From: Candidatus Acidiferrales bacterium
GTDB lineage: Bacteria > Acidobacteriota > Terriglobia > Acidiferrales > UBA7541
DNA: 64,000 nt
Direction of reading: 5' to 3'
Assembly: GCA_035262725.1 (NCBI GenBank)
Contig: DATFSH010000012.1
Span: 688-64,687, forward strand
The translations under genes were made by a program, and so were the position numbers. Shown here piece after piece: positions 6,482 to 62,300 of the stretch. Under the pieces are notes generated by a model. That model had not been told where the DNA came from. It made no database searches and saw only the letters and a program-made list of their open reading frames with translations. How positions within the stretch are numbered: position 1 is the stretch's first letter; every line of letters begins with the position of its first letter.

Positions 6482-7750
6482 ATGTCTGCGGCTGCGCGGG
6501 ATGAATTAAACGTTTATCAGTCTGCGGAAGCGCGCTTTGAAATCGCCGCGCATAAGCTGAATTTAGAGGATGGCCTTTACCGCTATCTGAAGTACCCCAG
6601 CAAGGAAATCACGGTTTACATTCCCGTTCCGCTCGATAACGGAAAACTCGAAGTCTTCACCGGCTATCGCGTGCTGCATTCCACGATCCGCGGCCCAGGG
6701 AAGGGTGGTATCCGCTTCGCTCCCGACGTCTCGCTCGACGAAGTCCGCGCCCTCGCCGCCTGGATGACGTGGAAGTGCGCCGTCGTCAATATTCCCTTCG
6801 GTGGCGCCAAAGGCGGCGTGATCTGCGACCCGAACAAGCTCTCCAAGAACGAGATCGAGCGCATCACTCGCCGCTACACCGCCGAGCTGAGCGAATGGTT
6901 TGGCCCCGAGCGCGACGTCCCCGCGCCCGACATCGGCACCAACGCGCAAACCATGGCCTGGGTGATGGACACCTACGCGATGCACAGCCGCCAGGCCACC
7001 ACCGCCGTCGTCACCGGCAAACCCCTCGAACTCGGCGGCTCGCAAGGCCGCACCGAAGCCACGGGCCGCGGCTTGATGATCTGCTGCGATAAAGCCGTTC
7101 AAAAGCTCGGAATGCAGCGCCGCGGCGCTCGCGTCATCATTCAGGGCTTTGGCAATGTGGGATCGCAGGCCGCGGACCTGATGCACAAAGCCGGCTACAA
7201 AATTATCGGCGTTGCGGATATTCATGGCGGTCTCTACAACGAAGGCGGCTTCGACATCCCCAAGTTGATCGAATGGGTGTACGGCCAGCGCAAACCGCTT
7301 CCCGATTTCCCCGCTGGCGGCGAAAAAATGAGCGCGCAGGAAGTCCTTTTCCACCCCTGCGAAATTCTGGTTCCCGCTGCCACGGAAAATCAGATCACCA
7401 CGAAAAACGCTCACCGCGTGGATTGCAAGATACTCTGCGAGGGCGCCAATGGCCCCACCACGTCGTATGCCGATCCGATCATCGAGAAGAAAGGGATCTT
7501 TATCATCCCCGATATTCTCGGCAACGCGGGCGGCGTCACCGTCAGCTACTTCGAGTGGGTGCAGGATCGCCAGGGCTTTTTCTGGCGCGAAAGCGAAGTA
7601 AATGAACGCCTACAGGACGTGATGGAACAAAGTTTCGATCAAGTTGTTCTTTACGCCGAAACTCACGGGGTGAATAATCGTATCGCAGCATACATAGTGG
7701 CGATTGATCGTGTGGCTCGCGCCCTGAAATTGCGCGGTATTTACGCGTGA
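6482..7750 (+). CDS. gdhA: Glutamate dehydrogenase (Glu/Leu/Phe/Val dehydrogenase family)
   Basis: 422 aa. Catalytic-Lys motif '[11 protein letters not shown]' and Rossmann 'IQGFGNVGS'. Only 40 nt upstream of the aldolase gene on the same strand. Confidence 0.9.
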
Positions 7751-7790
7751 TCTCGTAGGCAGCCTGCGATCCTGAAGGCATCCGTCGAGG

Positions 7791-8645
7791 GTGCCTGGCG
7801 GATTTCAGCTGCGCGCCCCAGCGATCTCGTATTGGGAGGCATTTCTGTATCCGGAAGCCATTTCGCCGGGCGCTTTAAAAACCGAGGACGAACACCGCCG
7901 CGACATCTGTGCCGTCGGCCGCTGGATTCACGACCGGGGTTACGTCGCCTCCACCGACGGCAACATCTCGCTTCGCCTCGACCCCCGCCGGATTCTCACT
8001 TCGCCCACCGGCATCAGCAAAGGCATGATGACGCCAGACGATCTCGTCATCACCGATCTGTATGGCCGCAAACTGAGCGGCCGTCGCAACGCCAGCTCCG
8101 AGCTCGGCATGCATCTCCTGATTTACAGCCGCCGCCCGGACATCAATGCCGTCTGCCACGCGCATCCGCCCGCCGCTACTGGTTACGCCGCTGCGGGCGT
8201 TCCCCTCAACAAAGCAATCCTCTGCGAACTCGTGCTCTCCCTCGGCTGCATTCCGGTCGCTCGCTACGGCACTCCCGGCACCAGCGAACTCACCGAAGCG
8301 CTCGAGCCTCTCGTCCAGAGCTACGAAGCCATCCTGATGGCCAATCACGGCGTGGTCTGCTACGGCCAGGATCTGCTCAACGCATTTTTCCGCATGGAGA
8401 CCACCGAACATTTCGCCCGCGTCTCCCTCGTCACCGAATTAATCGGCAAACAAGTCTTGCTTTCCAGCGGAGATGTGGAAAAATTGCTCGCGGCTCGCGC
8501 CCGTTACGGCGTTCAAACAGCTTCGTCCATCGGCCCCGACTGTCCAGTCACGGCAGACGGCGCCGATTCCGAGCGCATCACCCTGACGCGTCGCGAACTC
8601 GAAGCGCTCGTAGATGAAGCACAGAAAGAGCGGTCGCGCCGTTAG
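7791..8645 (+). CDS. Class II aldolase/adducin-family protein with N- and C-terminal extensions
   Basis: 'VASTDGNISLRL', 'SSELGMHLLIY', 'VCHAHPPAATGYA' and 'ILMANHGVVCYG' are class II (fuculose/rhamnulose-phosphate type) aldolase motifs. An extra tail of about 45 aa ends in 'ITLTRRELEALVDEAQKERSRR'. The start (GTG 7791) is uncertain. Confidence 0.85.
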   Translation: MPGGFQLRAPAISYWEAFLYPEAISPGALKTEDEHRRDICAVGRWIHDRGYVASTDGNISLRLDPRRILTSPTGISKGMMTPDDLVITDLYGRKLSGRRNASSELGMHLLIYSRRPDINAVCHAHPPAATGYAAAGVPLNKAILCELVLSLGCIPVARYGTPGTSELTEALEPLVQSYEAILMANHGVVCYGQDLLNAFFRMETTEHFARVSLVTELIGKQVLLSSGDVEKLLAARARYGVQTASSIGPDCPVTADGADSERITLTRRELEALVDEAQKERSRR

Positions 8646-8671
8646 CGCAAAGTCCTTGGGCTTTTCGTCAG

Positions 8672-8794
8672 GGCACGGCTTCAGCCGTGCCGTCGCGTGC
8701 AGCAAGCGTTTGTGTTTGACCTTTCGGCGAGCTTTGTAGGCCCCGGCTTCAGCCGCGGCGCAACGCACGCAAGCTTGAAGGGGCTTTAGCCCCT
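8672..8794. repeat. Cluster of three REP-like GC-rich hairpins between the aldolase and BMC-H genes
   Basis: GGCACGGCT-TC-AGCCGTGCC (8672-8691, 9-bp perfect stem). GCCCCGGCT-TC-AGCCGCGGC (8740-8759, one mismatch, preceded by TGTAG). AGGGGCT-TT-AGCCCCT (8779-8794). Confidence 0.65.
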
Positions 8795-8825
8795 GAAGTA
8801 ACGTCCACAAGCCGGAGGAACCAGA

Positions 8826-9122
8826 ATGGGCGAAGCACTCGGTATGATCGAAACGCGCGGCATGGTCGCCATGATCGAGGCCTCAGACGCCATGGTCAAA
8901 GCAGCCAAAGTCACGCTCGTCGGCTGGGAGAAGATCGGTTCTGGCTACGTCACTGCGATGGTCCGCGGCGATGTGGCTGCCGTGAAAGCGGCCACCGATG
9001 CCGGCGCTGCCGCCGCGCGCCGTGTGGGCGAATTGATCGCCGTCCACGTCATCCCGCGGCCACATCAATCGCTCGAAGACGTGTTGCCCATCGGCAAGAC
9101 CCCGATGGCAGCCGCAAAGTAG
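8826..9122 (+). CDS. BMC-H shell protein (PduA/EutM/CcmK-like, single BMC domain)
   Basis: '[70 protein letters not shown]' is almost motif-for-motif PduA-like. GGAGG RBS upstream. Confidence 0.95.
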
Positions 9123-9222
9123 CCGTCGCGAACGGCAAAGCGCCCAGGCTCGGCGCACAAGCGCAGAATCATCTTCGCCGCTATCGGATTCGGATTCACA
9201 GACGTTACCGATCTCAGAAACT

Positions 9223-9525
9223 ATGCTCCTCGCTCGCATCGTCGGCACTGTCGTTTCCACTCGCAAAGACCCGCGCCTCGAAGGCAAGAAGTTGCTCATC
9301 GTAAAACCCGTCAATCCCGAGGGCGCCGACGAATCCGGCTATTTGATTGCCGTCGATACCGTTGACGCCGGTTTCCGCGAAACCGTCCTCGTCGTCTCCG
9401 GCAGCTCCGCCCGCATGGCCGCCGAATGCAAAGACCGCCCCGTCGACGCCGCCATCATCGGCATCGTCGACTCCATCCACCTCGACTCTCATCACGAATC
9501 CGAACTCGCCGCCCGAAAAAAATGA
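9223..9525 (+). CDS. BMC-P vertex protein (EutN/CcmL family), paralog 1
   Basis: 'MLLARIVGTVVSTRKDPRLEGKKLLIVKPV...AVDTVDAGFRETVLVVSGSSARMA...AIIGIVDSI' is the EutN/CcmL pattern. It has a short charged C-terminal extension. Confidence 0.9.
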   Translation: MLLARIVGTVVSTRKDPRLEGKKLLIVKPVNPEGADESGYLIAVDTVDAGFRETVLVVSGSSARMAAECKDRPVDAAIIGIVDSIHLDSHHESELAARKK

Positions 9526-9574
9526 CGATGCAACCAATCATCGCCATCCTGAGTGCAGCGCAGGATCCGCATCA

Positions 9575-9856
9575 ATGATCCTCGGCCGCGTCATCGGCAA
9601 AGTCGTTGCCACCATGAAGAACGTTACGCTCAATGGCCAGCGCCTTCTCATCGTGCAGCCCATCGACCGTCACGGCCGCGACAAGGGTAAAGCGATCGTC
9701 GCGCTCGATGCCGTGGGTGCTGGAGCAGGTGAAACCGTCTATTGGTGCCGGGGCAAGGAAGCCAGCTTTCCGTTTCTTCCCGTCGAGCCGCCCACTGACG
9801 CAACCATCGTCGGCATCGTCGACGAAATCAACGCCGCCAAATCCGGGAATCCCTGA
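9575..9856 (+). CDS. BMC-P vertex protein (EutN/CcmL family), paralog 2
   Basis: 'MILGRVIGKVVATMKN..LLIVQPID...ALDAVGAGAGETVYW..ATIVGIVDEI'. ATG at 9575 inside ORF 9347..9856. It diverges in the segment where paralogs 1 and 3 read 'GSSAR' / 'AEGFSA'. Confidence 0.88.
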   Translation: MILGRVIGKVVATMKNVTLNGQRLLIVQPIDRHGRDKGKAIVALDAVGAGAGETVYWCRGKEASFPFLPVEPPTDATIVGIVDEINAAKSGNP

Positions 9857-10138
9857 ATGCTGATCGCGCGCGTCGTCGGCGACATTGTCGCCACTCAAAA
9901 AGATCCGTCGCACCAAGCCCGCAAAATCCTTCTCGTGCAGCCGCTCAATCTCGACGGCTCCGACCGCGGCGAAGCCGTTCTCGCGCTCGATGCCGTGGAG
10001 GCCGGAATCGGAGAGCGCGTCCTGCTTTCCGCCGAAGGCTTCTCCGCGATGACCGCCGTCGGCCGCCCCAACTCCCCCATCGACACTGCTGTAATCGGCG
10101 TAATCGATGAAGTCACGCTAATCGAAAACGCAAGGTAA
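9857..10138 (+). CDS. BMC-P vertex protein (EutN/CcmL family), paralog 3
   Basis: 'MLIARVVGDIVATQKD..LLVQPLNLDGS..ALDAVEAGIGERVLLSAEG...AVIGVIDEV'. Its ATG directly abuts the stop of paralog 2 (TGAATG). Confidence 0.9.
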   Translation: MLIARVVGDIVATQKDPSHQARKILLVQPLNLDGSDRGEAVLALDAVEAGIGERVLLSAEGFSAMTAVGRPNSPIDTAVIGVIDEVTLIENAR

Positions 10139-10141
10139 CAA

Positions 10142-10167
10142 TAGGGGCGGTCTCAGACCCGCCCGCG
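10142..10167. repeat. REP-like palindromic element (GGGGCGG-TCTCAGA-CCCGCCC family)
   Basis: TAGGGGCGGTCTCAGACCCGCCCGCG lies 4 nt after the last BMC-P stop. Related copies at 56087 and 62273 (inverted). Confidence 0.7.
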
Positions 10168-10378
10168 CAGCCCACACCTCCGCCCAATCCATTCGCCGTG
10201 GCGTATACCTCAGCGCAGGTCTGCCTCCTGCCGCAACACATCGTTTGCCCCTCCAACGTTCAGCAAACCGGATTCACGTGCGTCGCTTCATCTCGTCCAC
10301 CGAAAAAAAGGCAGCGCTCGCTGCATCGAACGCTGCCCATTCCGCGACCACCACGAGAATCCAGCCTGCTCCAGTTCA

Positions 10379-10753
10379 TTACTTCCCTGCTATGGTGCCC
10401 CCCGTAACCGAAATGTATTTCGCCTTGCCGTCAAAATGCACCTCGGTGATCTGGTTACCGTCAGTCACAACGGATGTGTAGGAGGCTTTGCTCTGCCCGT
10501 CTTTCCACTCGATCGGAGCTTCCGCCACCACTTTTCCGTCGCGAGAGACCGTCATCTTCGACCCGTCGGCAGAGACCTGATACGTCCCGGGCTTGAGATC
10601 TTTTCCGGCCAGAGTAGCTGCGCTATGCAGATCGACAGCGACGCGGGAAACCGGCTTGACTGTCTTTGAATCGTCGGCGCGAGCTGCGATTGGAATCACC
10701 AGAGCCAGCGCCGCCAGTATTGTCACCACAAAATTCGTTCGACGATGTTCCAT
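10379..10753 (-). CDS. Small secreted protein of unknown function
   Basis: ATG at 10753 is preceded by AGGAG. The signal peptide 'FVVTILAALALVIPIAARA' is followed by a beta-rich mature part of about 95 aa. Confidence 0.6.
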   Translation of the reverse strand: MEHRRTNFVVTILAALALVIPIAARADDSKTVKPVSRVAVDLHSAATLAGKDLKPGTYQVSADGSKMTVSRDGKVVAEAPIEWKDGQSKASYTSVVTDGNQITEVHFDGKAKYISVTGGTIAGK

Positions 10754-11145
10754 TTTGTTTCTCCTTGTTCTCACTCGCCCCTTGCAAACTCTTAGACGCA
10801 ATGGCTTCTGCACTGGGAGCGCCATTTCAAAAGATTCATAAAAAAAGCCTTGCAGCAATCGTTATAACGAAATCGCTCCGCATACGGACACCGTGCGTGC
10901 GAAAGTGAACAGCTTGCTCGACCGGCGACAAAAATGAGTAAAAACGCAACATTCTCCGAATTTTCGGAGAATGCCGAACGCAGCGGCATGCTGTTTTCGC
11001 AGCGCTCTTCTTGAATACGCTGCGCCCCGGCGATTAGTTCCACCGCAATCACAAATTAACAAATTCATCGATTCGGATTTTCTACTTGTAGTGTGAGTGC
11101 ACCTTTTTGGTGCACGCGCATTTTGTGGGCCTGCGGCGCCCGCAT

Positions 11146-11174
11146 TTGACACCCCGGCGACGCTCAGGAATAAT
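11146..11174 (+). promoter_or_regulatory. Sigma-70-type promoter of ruvA, possibly giving a leaderless mRNA
   Basis: TTGACA (11146-51), 17-nt spacer, AATAAT (11169-74). The ruvA ATG starts at 11183, with 8 nt between the end of the -10 and the ATG. No Shine-Dalgarno sequence lies between them. Confidence 0.45.
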
Positions 11175-11182
11175 CGCTCGAC

Positions 11183-11809
11183 ATGATCGGTTCGCTTCGC
11201 GGCAAGCTCATTGACAAACGCCCCAATCAGATTCTCCTGGACGTGAATGGCGTGGGCTATCAAGTTCAGATCCCGCTCTCCACGTTCGCGAGCCTCGCCG
11301 CCCTGCACGCCGAAACGAACCTCTTGATACACACGCACGTGCGCGAGGACCAGATCACGCTCTACGGCTTTGCTACGGCACGTGAAAAACAGTGTTTTGA
11401 GCTGCTGATTTCCGCTTCCGGCGTGGGTCCTTCGCTGGCGTTAAAGATTCTGTCCGGGATGAGCATCGAAGAGCTGGTGCCCGCAATCCGCAAGAGCGAT
11501 CTCGCGCAGCTCGTGAAAATTCCCGGCGTCGGCCGCAAGACGGCCGAGCGAATCGTCGTCGAGTTGCGTGACAGGCTCGTCGTGATTGATGTTCCGGAAG
11601 CTGGCAAGCCCAGCACGCGCTCTCAACTCGAGGACGACGTGGCCTCCGCGCTGATGAATCTTGGTTACGATGCGAATTCGGTCGAGCGCGCCGTTGAAAA
11701 ATCTCGCGCAGCCGCCGGCAACGACTTCGAGAAACTGCTTCGTTCCTCGCTGCAGATTCTCGGCAGCTCCGCGATGCAAAAATCCGCCCGCGCAGGCCGC
11801 GACGAATGA
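11183..11809 (+). CDS. ruvA: Holliday junction branch-migration complex subunit RuvA
   Basis: '[31 protein letters not shown]' and the HhH region '[19 protein letters not shown]'. Confidence 0.95.
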
Positions 11810-12834
11810 CCGGCGACCGCAACCGGATCATTTCCGGCAGAGCCTTCGAAGAAGACGTGCGACTTGACGCAACGGTGCGCCCGCAGAAAATCGAAGACTT
11901 CATCGGCCAGTCGCGCGTAAAAGAAAATCTGAAAATCGCCGTCGACGCCGCTCGCAACCGGGGCGAGGCGCTCGATCACGTCCTGCTCTACGGCCCGCCG
12001 GGGCTCGGCAAGACCACTCTCGCGCAAATCCTCGCCAACGAAATGGGCTCCGCCATCAAAATCAGCTCGGGCCCGCTGCTGGAAAAAAAAGGCGACCTCA
12101 CCGCCGTCCTCACATCGCTTGACGCGCGCGATTTTTTCTTTCTCGACGAAATTCACCGGCTGCAGCCGGCGCTCGAAGAAATCCTTTATCCCGCGATGGA
12201 GGATTTCCGCATTGACCTGATCATCGGCCAGGGCCCCGGGGCGCGCGTTCATCCCTACCAGCTGAACCGCTTCACGCTGATCGGGGCCACCACGCGCGCG
12301 GGCTTGATTATGGCGCCGCTGCGCTCGCGCTTCGGCATTGTCCATCGCCTGGAATTTTATTCGCCGGAGGATTTGCAGCGCATCGTAGAGCGCTCCGCAA
12401 AAATTCTCGGCATCACCATGGACCGCGAAGGCGCGGGGGAGATCGCCCGCCGCAGCCGCGGCACCCCGCGCGTCGCAAACCGCCTGCTCCGCCGCGTCCG
12501 CGATTTTGCCGAAGTGCGCGCCAAGGGCCACATCACCCTGGGCGTGGCGCGCGATGCGCTCGCCATGCTCGGCGTCGACGAGCACGGCCTCGACGAAGTC
12601 GATCGCAATTTGATGCTCACCATCATTCAAAAATATTCAGGCGGCCCGGTGGGCCTGAATACAATCGCCGCCTCGCTCAGCGAGGAAGAAGACGCCATCG
12701 AAGAAATCTACGAGCCCTACCTGATGCAGCTGGGGCTGCTTGACCGTACGCCGCGCGGCCGCGTGGCAACGGCGCTGGCGTACAAGCATTTCGGCTTCGA
12801 TGAGCCGCGGCGCCAGCCTGCTCTTTTCAGTTAG
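11806..12834 (+). CDS. ruvB: Holliday junction ATP-dependent DNA helicase RuvB
   Basis: '[11 protein letters not shown]', Walker A '[11 protein letters not shown]', 'FLDEIHRL', '[10 protein letters not shown]'. 4-nt overlap with ruvA. Confidence 0.97.
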
Positions 12835-23571: not shown

Positions 23572-24753
23572 TTAGCTCGCTCGCAGAACCTTCATCCAGT
23601 GCAATGTGACCGGTTTGGGTTCGAGGGCTTCAATCTCGATTTCGGCTGCAGGTCCTTCCGTCTGTTCGCGCCAGCGGTAAACACCGGGCTCGGTCTCTTC
23701 ACGGATGCGGCCGCTCGCCGGACGCAAAAACTCGCGCGCGTCATCGAGCGAAGCAGTTTCGCGCGTAGCGGGCCGCGAGAGCGCTTCTACGGCGTAGCTC
23801 CGCAGGAGTTTGGGCCAGTAGGTCTCGAATAGAGAGGCGGACGCGAACACATCACTCCACGCCACTTCGCCGCCGAAGGCCACCACCACTCCAACTACGT
23901 CGTGGTCCTTCGTCGTTCGCTCGAACCGCTTTTGCAATTGCCCGGCCAGTTCTTCGACGGATCTTCCGACGCGCGGCGACTCATAGATTTGTTTGTAGGA
24001 CATTGTCGGAGCATTTGAAGCGATCACCGCATCCACATCGTTCTGAGAGAGTGCTGGTGCTGCCGCGGGAGCGCCTGTTGCTGTTCTCGAGCCCGCCGTC
24101 GTGCCGGCGCGAGCGCTGCTCATCGGAGCAGCTCCGCGCACAGCCGCCCACACCTGCGCCTGGCTTTGATCCACGGCTGCTTTCTCGCGCACACTCGGAT
24201 GCACGATCGTGCCGGAAGCTTTGAATTTATCCGTGCCGCCCGTCCAGCGCCCGTGCTCGACGCAGAAAACGCTGAGCGGAAGCGGATCAGCACCAATCGG
24301 AACGATGCGGTCCTTTCCGATCACTCGATCCTGCTTGCCGCCCGAAACCACTTCTCCTGCGAGAAGAAGGAGCGGGCGTTTGCCGCGGTTGATGAGCACC
24401 AGCTGATTTACCTGCGCGCTGCCGTAGGAAGCAGCACCGCCGCCATCGTCTCGAGTGCGGCGCATATAACTGCCTTGCTCGGTGACAATGGCGTCGCCTG
24501 AAGCGAGGGCCTCATCAAGCGTGGCGAATCCGCTCGTTTCGGCTTGCCGCGAAGCGTATACGGGAAACACGGTGAGGTTTTCGTAGGTGACGGCCTCGCC
24601 GAGCCGCCAGCCTCGAGCGGATTTTTCGTCACCGCCAGAAGCGGCGCGGACATTTGAATCGGCGTTGGTCATAAGAATTACTCCCGCCGCCAGGGCGAGA
24701 ACGGAAAGTGCGAGTATTCCGAAGACGTTAGTGCTCTTGGGTCTGGGTGCCAT
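23572..24753 (-). CDS. Membrane-anchored DUF6569/ARPP-1-like protein (unknown function)
   Basis: ATG at 24753. TM anchor, then 'YENLTVFPV', 'LVLINRGKRPLLLLAGEVVSGGKQDRV', 'PLSVFCVEHGRW' and 'VGVVVAFGGEVAWSDVF..YWPKLLRSYAVEAL'. These match my recollection of that uncharacterised family. The family name is tentative. Confidence 0.55.
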   Translation of the reverse strand: MAPRPKSTNVFGILALSVLALAAGVILMTNADSNVRAASGGDEKSARGWRLGEAVTYENLTVFPVYASRQAETSGFATLDEALASGDAIVTEQGSYMRRTRDDGGGAASYGSAQVNQLVLINRGKRPLLLLAGEVVSGGKQDRVIGKDRIVPIGADPLPLSVFCVEHGRWTGGTDKFKASGTIVHPSVREKAAVDQSQAQVWAAVRGAAPMSSARAGTTAGSRTATGAPAAAPALSQNDVDAVIASNAPTMSYKQIYESPRVGRSVEELAGQLQKRFERTTKDHDVVGVVVAFGGEVAWSDVFASASLFETYWPKLLRSYAVEALSRPATRETASLDDAREFLRPASGRIREETEPGVYRWREQTEGPAAEIEIEALEPKPVTLHWMKVLRAS

Positions 24754-24891
24754 TTGGAAGTCCCCCTTGGCCGGTCTCCCCGCCTGGAGCCACTTCGCGG
24801 CCTTCGGTGATGAGAACGAGCGGGCACAGTTTCCTTGCACGTTTTTTTGAAGGAAATTAGCAGGGTTGGAGCAGGCGGTAACGGCCTAAGT

Positions 24892-62272: not shown

Positions 62273-62300
62273 CGCGGGCGGGTCTTAGACCCGCCCCTAC
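62273..62300. repeat. REP-like palindromic element (inverted orientation)
   Basis: CGCGGGCGGGTCTTAGACCCGCCCCTAC is the reverse complement of the 56087-type element. It lies about 60 nt after the kinase stop. Confidence 0.7.

Follow-up and report, generated by a model that had tools for sequence, protein, structure and literature searches.

Positions 6482 to 10167 of a 64-kb stretch of DNA from a Candidatus Acidiferrales bacterium (contig DATFSH010000012.1; the whole stretch is called the window here) hold a small bacterial microcompartment (BMC) locus. A glutamate dehydrogenase gene (gdh) is followed there by a class II aldolase gene, one gene for a hexameric shell protein (BMC-H), and three genes for pentameric shell proteins (BMC-P; named P1, P2, and P3 in their order), and we refer to the aldolase gene and the four shell genes as the cassette (Table 1). 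We identified the genes from a listing of open reading frames (ORFs) and by Pfam scans, in which all six plus-strand genes exceeded the gathering thresholds. Both agree with a preliminary description of the window, made from the sequence alone, which had placed the same six genes on one strand. The gap between gdh and the aldolase gene is 40 nt, and the P2 stop codon abuts the P3 start codon (TGAATG). The start of P2 is position 9575; the longest ORF, from position 9347, would overlap P1. A convergent gene downstream bounds the unit and is not a member of it, and it is kept downstream of the aldolase in relatives with and without shell genes.

Table 1. Coordinates of the microcompartment locus and of the features at its downstream border
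Feature	Position	Strand	Details
Glutamate dehydrogenase, gdh	6482-7750	+	PF02812 and PF00208; GdhA-like in NCBIfam, below cutoff
Class II aldolase, FucA/DrdA-like, metal dependent	7791-8645	+	PF00596, 160 bits, residues 38-212
Encapsulation peptide-like C-terminal tail of the aldolase	8565-8642	+	Residues ~259-284, ERITLTRRELEALVDEAQKERSRR
Aldolase-BMC-H spacer, 180 nt	8646-8825	+	Three REP-like GC stem-loops, then a GGAGG ribosome-binding site
BMC-H hexamer shell protein, PduA/EutM-like, 98 aa	8826-9122	+	PF00936, 103 bits
BMC-P pentamer paralog P1, 100 aa	9223-9525	+	PF03319, 104 bits
BMC-P pentamer paralog P2, 93 aa	9575-9856	+	PF03319, 95 bits
BMC-P pentamer paralog P3, 93 aa	9857-10138	+	PF03319, 85 bits
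GC hairpin GGGCGG-N8-CCGCCC, without U tract	10145-10164	+	6-bp stem, directly after the last shell gene
Terminator of the convergent gene	10309-10338		Belongs to the gene at 10379-10753
Convergent gene, 124-aa protein	10379-10753	-	Signal peptide-like N terminus, no family match

None of the four shell genes is disrupted, and all are under strong purifying selection; they are maintained genes, not relics. This follows from the ratios of nonsynonymous to synonymous substitutions (dN/dS) among ten cassette-bearing Acidiferrales loci (dS of about 0.9 to 1.3), which were 0.03 for BMC-H, 0.08 for P1, 0.16 for P2, and 0.12 for P3, and from the BMC-H protein itself, which has the usual motifs when read from its sequence (D..K, a KIGSG pore, and IPRPH) and exceeds the NCBIfam EutM equivalog cutoff (149 versus 133 bits). 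In a contig collection, 228 blocks list a BMC-H protein identical to that of the window. P1, P2, and P3 each have their own ortholog, in the same order, in every cassette, across orders. We rejected the idea that the three genes arose by recent duplication, as the paralogs are mutually only 38 to 42% identical (42% for P2 and P1, 38% for P2 and P3), compared to 47 to 77% between orthologs from different orders. The four proteins are predicted to assemble into a shell.

The aldolase retains the metal ligands and the catalytic Glu of its class. In an alignment with Escherichia coli FucA, residues E73, H92, H94, H155, and Y209 of FucA correspond to E104, H123, H125, H186, and Y239 of the window aldolase, and these five residues are invariant in the aldolase family, of which at least 120 protein clusters are 73 to 97% identical to the window protein. 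The best solved homologs are DrdA (PDB 6BTD) and then FucA of S. pneumoniae (4C24), with DrdA marginally ahead. Both share the fold and the metal-binding and catalytic residues of the window aldolase but are cytosolic proteins of about 215 residues that lack a C-terminal tail and have only ~31 to 35% identity to it. DrdA is the 5-deoxyribulose-1-phosphate aldolase of radical-SAM by-product salvage. Given the small lead of DrdA over FucA in score, acetaldehyde rather than lactaldehyde could be the aldehyde released.

FucA and all solved homologs stop at about residue 242 to 245 of the window aldolase. The extension beyond the FucA fold is 39 amino acids long and consists of a variable linker (residues ~241 to 258) and then a tail with the conserved segment ERITLTRRELEALVDEA(V)QK(D/E)R.RR. 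This tail has the highest helical hydrophobic moment within the last 85 residues of the aldolase, and its conservation equals that of the catalytic core. It is kept in all 120 close homologs listed and in distant aldolases that bear encapsulation peptides (EPs), and the motif ITLTR.EL..LI..AV ends many of the distant aldolase representatives. The ELxALV core of the tail is shared with the N-terminal EP (M.E.ELRALVRD.IAR) of a small Cys-rich protein from the canonical ACI loci introduced below. From these features we infer that the tail is a C-terminal EP that recruits the aldolase into the shell. A hidden Markov model (HMM) of the tail matched no protein other than aldolases in the window and the first ~110 related loci, and the aldolase is the predicted signature enzyme and only locally encoded cargo.

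The start codon of the aldolase family is uncertain (it is GTG at position 7791 in the window). Short aldolase gene calls of 179 to 206 aa were seen in related loci L093, L095, L097, L099, and L100 (aldolase region at about 9000 to 9950; L numbers denote related loci throughout). We rejected the idea that these are pseudogenes, as the ORF is intact from about residue 12 to 18. True frameshifts in the aldolase gene occurred only in error-prone long-read contigs (L094, L098, and L101). A scan of viral contigs with the aldolase gave no match.

The combination of genes matches the ACI type in the BMC catalog of Sutter, Melnicki, Schulz, Woyke & Kerfeld (2021, Nat Commun 12:3809, PMC8217296), which was overlooked in the preliminary description, where the locus was compared with the Planctomycete/Verrucomicrobia (PVM) and PVM-like types alone. 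The catalog lists 125 ACI loci, all in Acidobacteria, and characterizes them by a PF00596 aldolase with a C-terminal EP, a 2-hydroxyacid dehydrogenase, at least one BMC-H gene, and an adjacent BMC-P triplet. In most ACI genomes, the aldehyde dehydrogenase (AldDh) of the type bears an EP and is encoded on a satellite locus. Pairs of PduS/PduT-like genes are occasionally satellites of ACI loci, and an ACI locus is always the sole BMC locus of its genome. Shell proteins labeled ACI in the catalog trees include those of Ca. Solibacter Ellin6076, Ca. Sulfopaludibacter SbA3, and unclassified Solibacterales; Ellin6076 and SbA3 also have satellites with the trimeric type of shell protein (BMC-T) (all PMC8217296).

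To compare the locus with its relatives, we scanned one genome per GTDB species by aldolase alignment and kept the best 80 loci (97 to 47% identity to the window aldolase). A metagenome scan with BMC-H gave 80 further loci, and all were annotated by BLAST, HMM searches, and clustering. The closest aldolases named by NCBI are from Candidatus Acidiferrales bacterium, an order in the phylum Acidobacteriota, class Terriglobia, and the best 80 genome loci are all of the Acidobacteriota type (a few bins carry other phylum names), as the preliminary description had guessed when it called the genome acidobacterial looking. Only two cassette architectures were found among the annotated loci. In the Terriglobia form, the order is aldolase-H-P1-P2-P3, with nothing else conserved; its hosts are Acidiferrales, other Terriglobia, Bryobacterales, Solibacter, and Sulfopaludibacter. 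In the canonical form, the order is YHS-like small protein-aldolase-H-P1-P2-P3-small Cys-rich EP protein-2-hydroxyacid dehydrogenase, as exemplified by Vicinamibacterales locus L090 and by L143, L153, L157, L160, L167, L176, and L178.

The order aldolase-H-P1-P2-P3 is the same in both forms. The window proteins are 44 to 52% (aldolase), 84 to 88% (BMC-H), 64 to 70% (P1), 51 to 60% (P2), and 47 to 53% (P3) identical to their canonical ACI counterparts, and BMC-H is 84 to 100% identical across all ACI-type loci. Over 80 loci, shell protein divergence correlated with aldolase divergence (Spearman coefficients of 0.77 to 0.88). The identical order, the orthologs at each position, and the correlated divergence together indicate that the five genes are an old, co-inherited cassette. 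The window locus also resembles the ACI type in its phylum, its tailed PF00596 aldolase, its BMC-H with standard motifs, its three divergent BMC-P genes in the same order, and the absence of an AldDh gene from the main locus. It differs in its host, which belongs to the Terriglobia (Acidiferrales), whereas the canonical hosts belong to subdivisions 4 and 6, and in its surroundings, as the window cassette sits within a housekeeping neighborhood (cofD-gdh ... ruvAB).

We then looked for the enzymes that would process an aldehyde. In the 64-kb window, which makes up nearly all of the 65.8-kb ENA contig ERZ27264385:k141_489041, Pfam annotation of the called genes and a scan of the remaining ORFs found no PF00171, PF06130, PF01515, PF00465, PF00871, or DeoR gene, no second PF00936 gene, and no further PF03319 gene. 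A phmmer search of six-frame ORFs of the whole window with E. coli EutE, EutD, EutG, EutL, and AldA likewise gave no match, and the positive controls EutM and EutN matched as expected. Both searches thus agree with the preliminary description, which had reported no aldehyde dehydrogenase, PduL or Pta phosphotransacylase, alcohol dehydrogenase, acetate kinase, BMC-T protein, or DeoR-type regulator in the window. The window also contains no fucose or rhamnose genes. To look for satellite hexamer genes, we searched with BMC-H; the best 120 clusters and all 19 contexts inspected were the aldolase-adjacent gene, and a metagenome scan seeded with the Ca. Acidoferrum typicum BMC-H named "eutM 1" returned main loci only.

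We consider it likely, at a probability of about 0.7, that the locus is the main locus of an ACI-type BMC in a reduced, Terriglobia form, with distal partners encoded elsewhere. The assignment to ACI is in itself very likely. The preliminary description had raised the possibility of a functionally undescribed BMC type, which does not fit a cassette that is orthologous and collinear with canonical ACI: the locus is a stripped-down member of that type, not a new type of organelle. One could argue that the reduced form counts as an undescribed sub-architecture of ACI. Functionally, the one BMC-H and the three nonredundant BMC-P proteins would build a small polyhedral shell, into which the amphipathic C-terminal EP would recruit the metal-dependent class II aldolase. 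Inside the shell, the aldolase would cleave a phosphorylated ketose (candidates are fuculose-, rhamnulose-, and 5-deoxyribulose-1-phosphate) into dihydroxyacetone phosphate (DHAP) and a reactive aldehyde, either lactaldehyde or acetaldehyde. Removal of this aldehyde would fall to enzymes that most likely have their genes at other genomic sites and would be targeted by EPs of their own, as in the published ACI type.

Several observations weigh against this interpretation. Accessory genes that mark the canonical form set it apart from the window locus: the 2-hydroxyacid dehydrogenase (PF00389/PF02826) is absent from the window and from all Terriglobia-type loci examined, an HMM of the Cys-rich EP protein (ELRALVRD...CNHCGYC) had no significant match in the window or these loci, and a YHS-like protein was annotated neither in the window nor in the Terriglobia-type loci from the metagenome scan. 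By phmmer, about 190 related loci (80 from species genomes, 80 from metagenomes, and ~30 from contig contexts; 2.55 Mb) had no aldehyde dehydrogenase of the EutE or AldA kind at a distance of 10 kb or less from the cassette. Pta, iron-dependent alcohol dehydrogenase, and EutL-type BMC-T were likewise not found within that distance in the same set, and PROSITE aldehyde dehydrogenase patterns near the cassette fell in spurious frames only. This lack is consistent with the off-locus AldDh of the catalog. Because matches were ordered by their likeness to main-locus proteins and only 10 kb on either side was covered, distal loci were invisible to these searches; they recovered no satellite locus, and a distal core for this lineage rests on the literature. 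The family searches also point to no single substrate, as the NCBIfam equivalogs all score far below their cutoffs and DrdA and FucA score about equally, and an AlphaFold model built for the aldolase on a shallow alignment was too poor for use (pLDDT of 40). Finally, many relatives carry the tailed aldolase and no shell genes nearby. Of the 80 species loci, 71 had sufficient sequence downstream of the aldolase gene; 27 of these have the cassette, 23 encode a tailed aldolase but lack shell genes within 10 kb, and in 21 both a detectable tail and shell genes are missing. In the 23 tailed, shell-less genomes, either the shell genes may be dispersed elsewhere or the tail may have a role independent of the shell.

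The tailed, shell-less loci are L016 to L019, L021, L025 to L027, L031, L035 to L047, L055, L070, and L071 (aldolase at about 10001 to 10810). In shell-less Acidiferrales, synteny is intact (gdh-aldolase-secreted protein on the minus strand-ruvA-ruvB), and the aldolase gene ends 20 to 130 nt from the next gene. In a neighbor-joining tree of the aldolases, shell-less lineages are nested at several places in the cassette clade, and one whole sister clade is shell-less; within this sister clade, the core, linker, and tail have mean pairwise identities of 80.6, 66.3, and 77.1%, respectively. Two loci have the aldolase and BMC-H genes only, with no BMC-P gene (L102, 3835 to 5527, and L105, 150 to 2973; Ca. 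Acidoferrum typicum). After BMC-H, these two loci contain a gene fragment of the 23S_rRNA_IVP family, a small reverse-strand ORF, and ruvA. The NCBI name "eutM 1" suggests that the Ca. Acidoferrum typicum metagenome-assembled genome may have another hexamer gene at a different site. In L033 and L037, synteny is kept and both the shell genes and the tail are lost, and the aldolases of Acidobacteriaceae have no shell genes nearby and no tail. Retention of a tagged aldolase at the syntenic site without some or all of the shell genes appears to be an undescribed pattern.

These data bear on several other explanations. The Acidiferrales shell might enclose the aldolase alone, with no partner enzyme targeted to it, and the cassette would then be a self-sufficient, dispensable add-on in a genome without an aldehyde-oxidizing core. 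The aldolase is indeed the sole EP-bearing protein in the window and the related loci scanned with the tail HMM, no aldehyde dehydrogenase, Pta, alcohol dehydrogenase, or BMC-T lies within 10 kb of the ~190 cassettes, the canonical ACI accessory genes are absent, and every BMC-H relative inspected adjoins an aldolase, with no satellite seen. We nevertheless think this unlikely, for both the aldolase-only shell and the self-sufficient cassette: the reach of the searches described above would have hidden a distal partner, most ACI genomes keep the EP-bearing AldDh on a satellite locus (PMC8217296), and such a compartment would seem to bring no obvious benefit, since the aldehyde would leave the shell unprocessed. 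If it were true, the shell would act not as a classical aldehyde-to-acyl-CoA metabolosome but in some other way, for instance in kinetic control or by sequestering the aldolase. Somewhat more doubtful still is that the tail is not, or not only, an EP, the aldolase being a cytosolic housekeeping enzyme (for example, of a DHAP shunt or 5-deoxyribose salvage) and the shell module perhaps enclosing other cargo. This would fit the 23 species in which a tail as conserved as the core occurs without nearby shell genes, the housekeeping setting (cofD, gdh, ruvA, and ruvB), the best solved homolog being a 5-deoxyribulose-1-phosphate aldolase, and the window free of fucose and rhamnose genes. Against it stand the presence of the same motif on canonical ACI aldolases and on distant aldolase representatives, the agreement of its core with the EP on another ACI cargo protein, the co-inheritance of the aldolase and shell genes, and the lack of the tail in the shell-less Acidobacteriaceae, L033, and L037.

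That the cassette is a decaying relic on its way to loss, with no working organelle, is very improbable. The relatives do form a graded series, from the full cassette through aldolase plus BMC-H (L102 and L105) and the tailed aldolase alone to the untailed aldolase (L033 and L037), and unrelated selfish genes lie between the BMC-P genes in several loci. Against this stand four intact shell genes under strong purifying selection at a dS of about 1 and the occurrence of the exact window BMC-H in 228 contig-collection blocks. We give even less credence to the idea that the locus is the satellite of a full PVM or PVM-like locus elsewhere in the genome. PVM loci also combine an aldolase with a BMC-P triplet, and the preliminary description had offered a satellite shell/aldolase locus as one option; the catalog, however, by definition counts any locus that has BMC-H as well as BMC-P as a main locus and not as a satellite (PMC8217296), and the best 80 genome matches are Acidobacteriota-type aldolase loci with the synteny of the window. 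The aldolase-triplet combination, named a PVM hallmark in that description, is not specific to PVM, as the HO (Haliangium ochraceum type) loci combine both too.

With PVM and PVM-like loci, which serve fucose/rhamnose catabolism and have Planctomycetes, Verrucomicrobia, or gut bacteria as hosts, the window locus shares the class II aldolase as signature enzyme, the BMC-P triplet, and the presumed chemistry (ketose-1-phosphate to DHAP plus lactaldehyde). It differs from PVM loci, which carry AldDh, phosphotransacylase (PTAC), acetate kinase, and further enzymes beside the shell genes, whereas none of these is in the window; PVM loci also have two BMC-H genes and belong to other phyla, compared to one BMC-H gene and Acidobacteriota here. 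HO loci share the BMC-P triplet, and type I HO loci likewise split aldolase and BMC-P genes from the main locus. In the catalog, the aldolases of HO and MIC3 (the Planctomycetes "incomplete core" type) are closest to the ACI aldolase, and the AldDh of MIC3 is closest to that of ACI (PMC8217296). Compared by catalog description alone, HO and MIC3 differ from the window locus in having BMC-T shell proteins and in belonging to other phyla, and the AldDhs of both are placed on the catalog tree (PMC8217296).

The ACI type has no characterized member and no assigned substrate, even though Acidobacteria are very abundant in soil. If the locus is a reduced ACI system, the minimal invariant core of the type would be five genes, encoding the tagged aldolase, one hexamer, and three pentamers, and the other canonical genes would be lineage-specific additions. 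The Terriglobia form, which has four shell proteins and a single native cargo tag, would offer the simplest natural starting point for rebuilding an ACI shell. General knowledge of microcompartments is unchanged by the locus. The most interesting by-product is the series of shell presence and absence among relatives; this loss series could help to establish the contribution of the shell and the pace at which an EP decays after shell loss, and complete genomes exist for both the cassette-positive and the cassette-negative states. Large sequences without the cassette but with an EP-bearing aldolase are OY970264.1 (complete, 4.56 Mb), CAWEST010000003.1 (2.13 Mb), and CAVZWO010000004.1 (2.93 Mb).

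The position after P3 varies with lineage. It is occupied by an aldo/keto reductase, a glyoxalase/VOC protein, or a 2-hydroxyacid dehydrogenase (L032, 12312 to 13412; L106 to L110, about 11973 to 12410; L090), and in canonical loci the 2-hydroxyacid dehydrogenase follows P3 directly (L090, 5939 to 7033). All three are plausible enzymes for C3 aldehydes or hydroxy acids; by eye, no obvious EP was seen on the reductase or the glyoxalase-family protein. The canonical Cys-rich protein is about 75 aa long and has the pattern M.E.ELRALVRD.IAR ... C.IEP.V.CNHCGYC.S.GH (L178, 7422 to 7649; L153, 11148 to 11366). Its HMM gave one marginal match in a Terriglobia-type locus (L144; E value of 8e-4) and otherwise matched canonical loci only. 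The protein has 7829 relatives at an E value of ≤0.001, and the best 120 are all stand-alone proteins without a Pfam domain. We also considered whether the ~50-aa domain that follows the EP in AldDh is a homolog of the Cys-rich protein and rejected this, as those best 120 matches were all of the stand-alone, ~75-aa kind.

The gdh gene is a conserved neighbor that is probably cotranscribed with the aldolase gene. We rejected it as a microcompartment cargo, since the protein has no EP-like motif or extension and its adjacency to the aldolase is independent of the shell genes: with a gap of about 10 to 230 nt, the adjacency is kept across Acidiferrales and the sister clade whether shell genes are present or not. 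The shared neighborhood runs STAS-Arf-like(-)-TPR-cofD-gdh-aldolase-BMC-H-three BMC-P-small secreted protein(-)-ruvA-ruvB. It is identical in six contexts of close aldolase homologs, including contigs of 5.43 Mb (ERZ25039491:contig_27579) and 2.04 Mb (ERZ25039555:contig_14942), and the same layout was found in ten contexts of the exact window BMC-H protein and five of an 89%-identical BMC-H. In the comparison with related genomes that the preliminary description had proposed, the layout of the block thus recurs in every close relative examined.

The cassette spacers appear to be insertion hot spots. Unrelated small genes are inserted between the BMC-P genes in L010 (12046 to 12474), L011 (11797 to 12006), L012 (11783 to 12226), and L106 to L110 (about 10676 to 11191); the families seen are GIY-YIG, HicB-like, SRPBCC/polyketide-cyclase, DinB_2, and 23S_rRNA_IVP four-helix bundle. 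Between the aldolase and BMC-H genes, spacer length ranges from 53 to ~260 nt among relatives (53 nt in L007 and 146 nt in L009). In the window, this spacer contains stem-loops at 8672 to 8691, ~8739 to 8760, and ~8774 to 8799 and has an RNA folding energy of -76.9 kcal/mol (z score of -1.98). All three hairpins have partial copies at nonhomologous sites in related loci. Rfam gave no match in this spacer or in the other intergenic regions searched.

The preliminary description had a repetitive extragenic palindromic (REP) hairpin and a convergent gene close the unit. Both the hairpin and the convergent gene are there, and the REP label holds only in part. "REP-like" is acceptable given the partial copies at unrelated sites, but it is weakly supported, and the terminal hairpin (10145 to 10164) is no more stable than shuffled sequence (z score of -0.53). 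This hairpin has one partial second copy in the window (62273 to 62291) and is kept at the equivalent position in L013, L093, and L101. The GC-rich stem-loops carry UUCA or UUAG loops, with partial copies at nonhomologous intergenic sites in both the window and its relatives. Farther downstream, a gene with a PF20208 (ARPP-1) domain (23572 to 24840, minus strand) lies beside several genes without a family match, and several related loci likewise have a homolog of it downstream of ruvB and HPPK.

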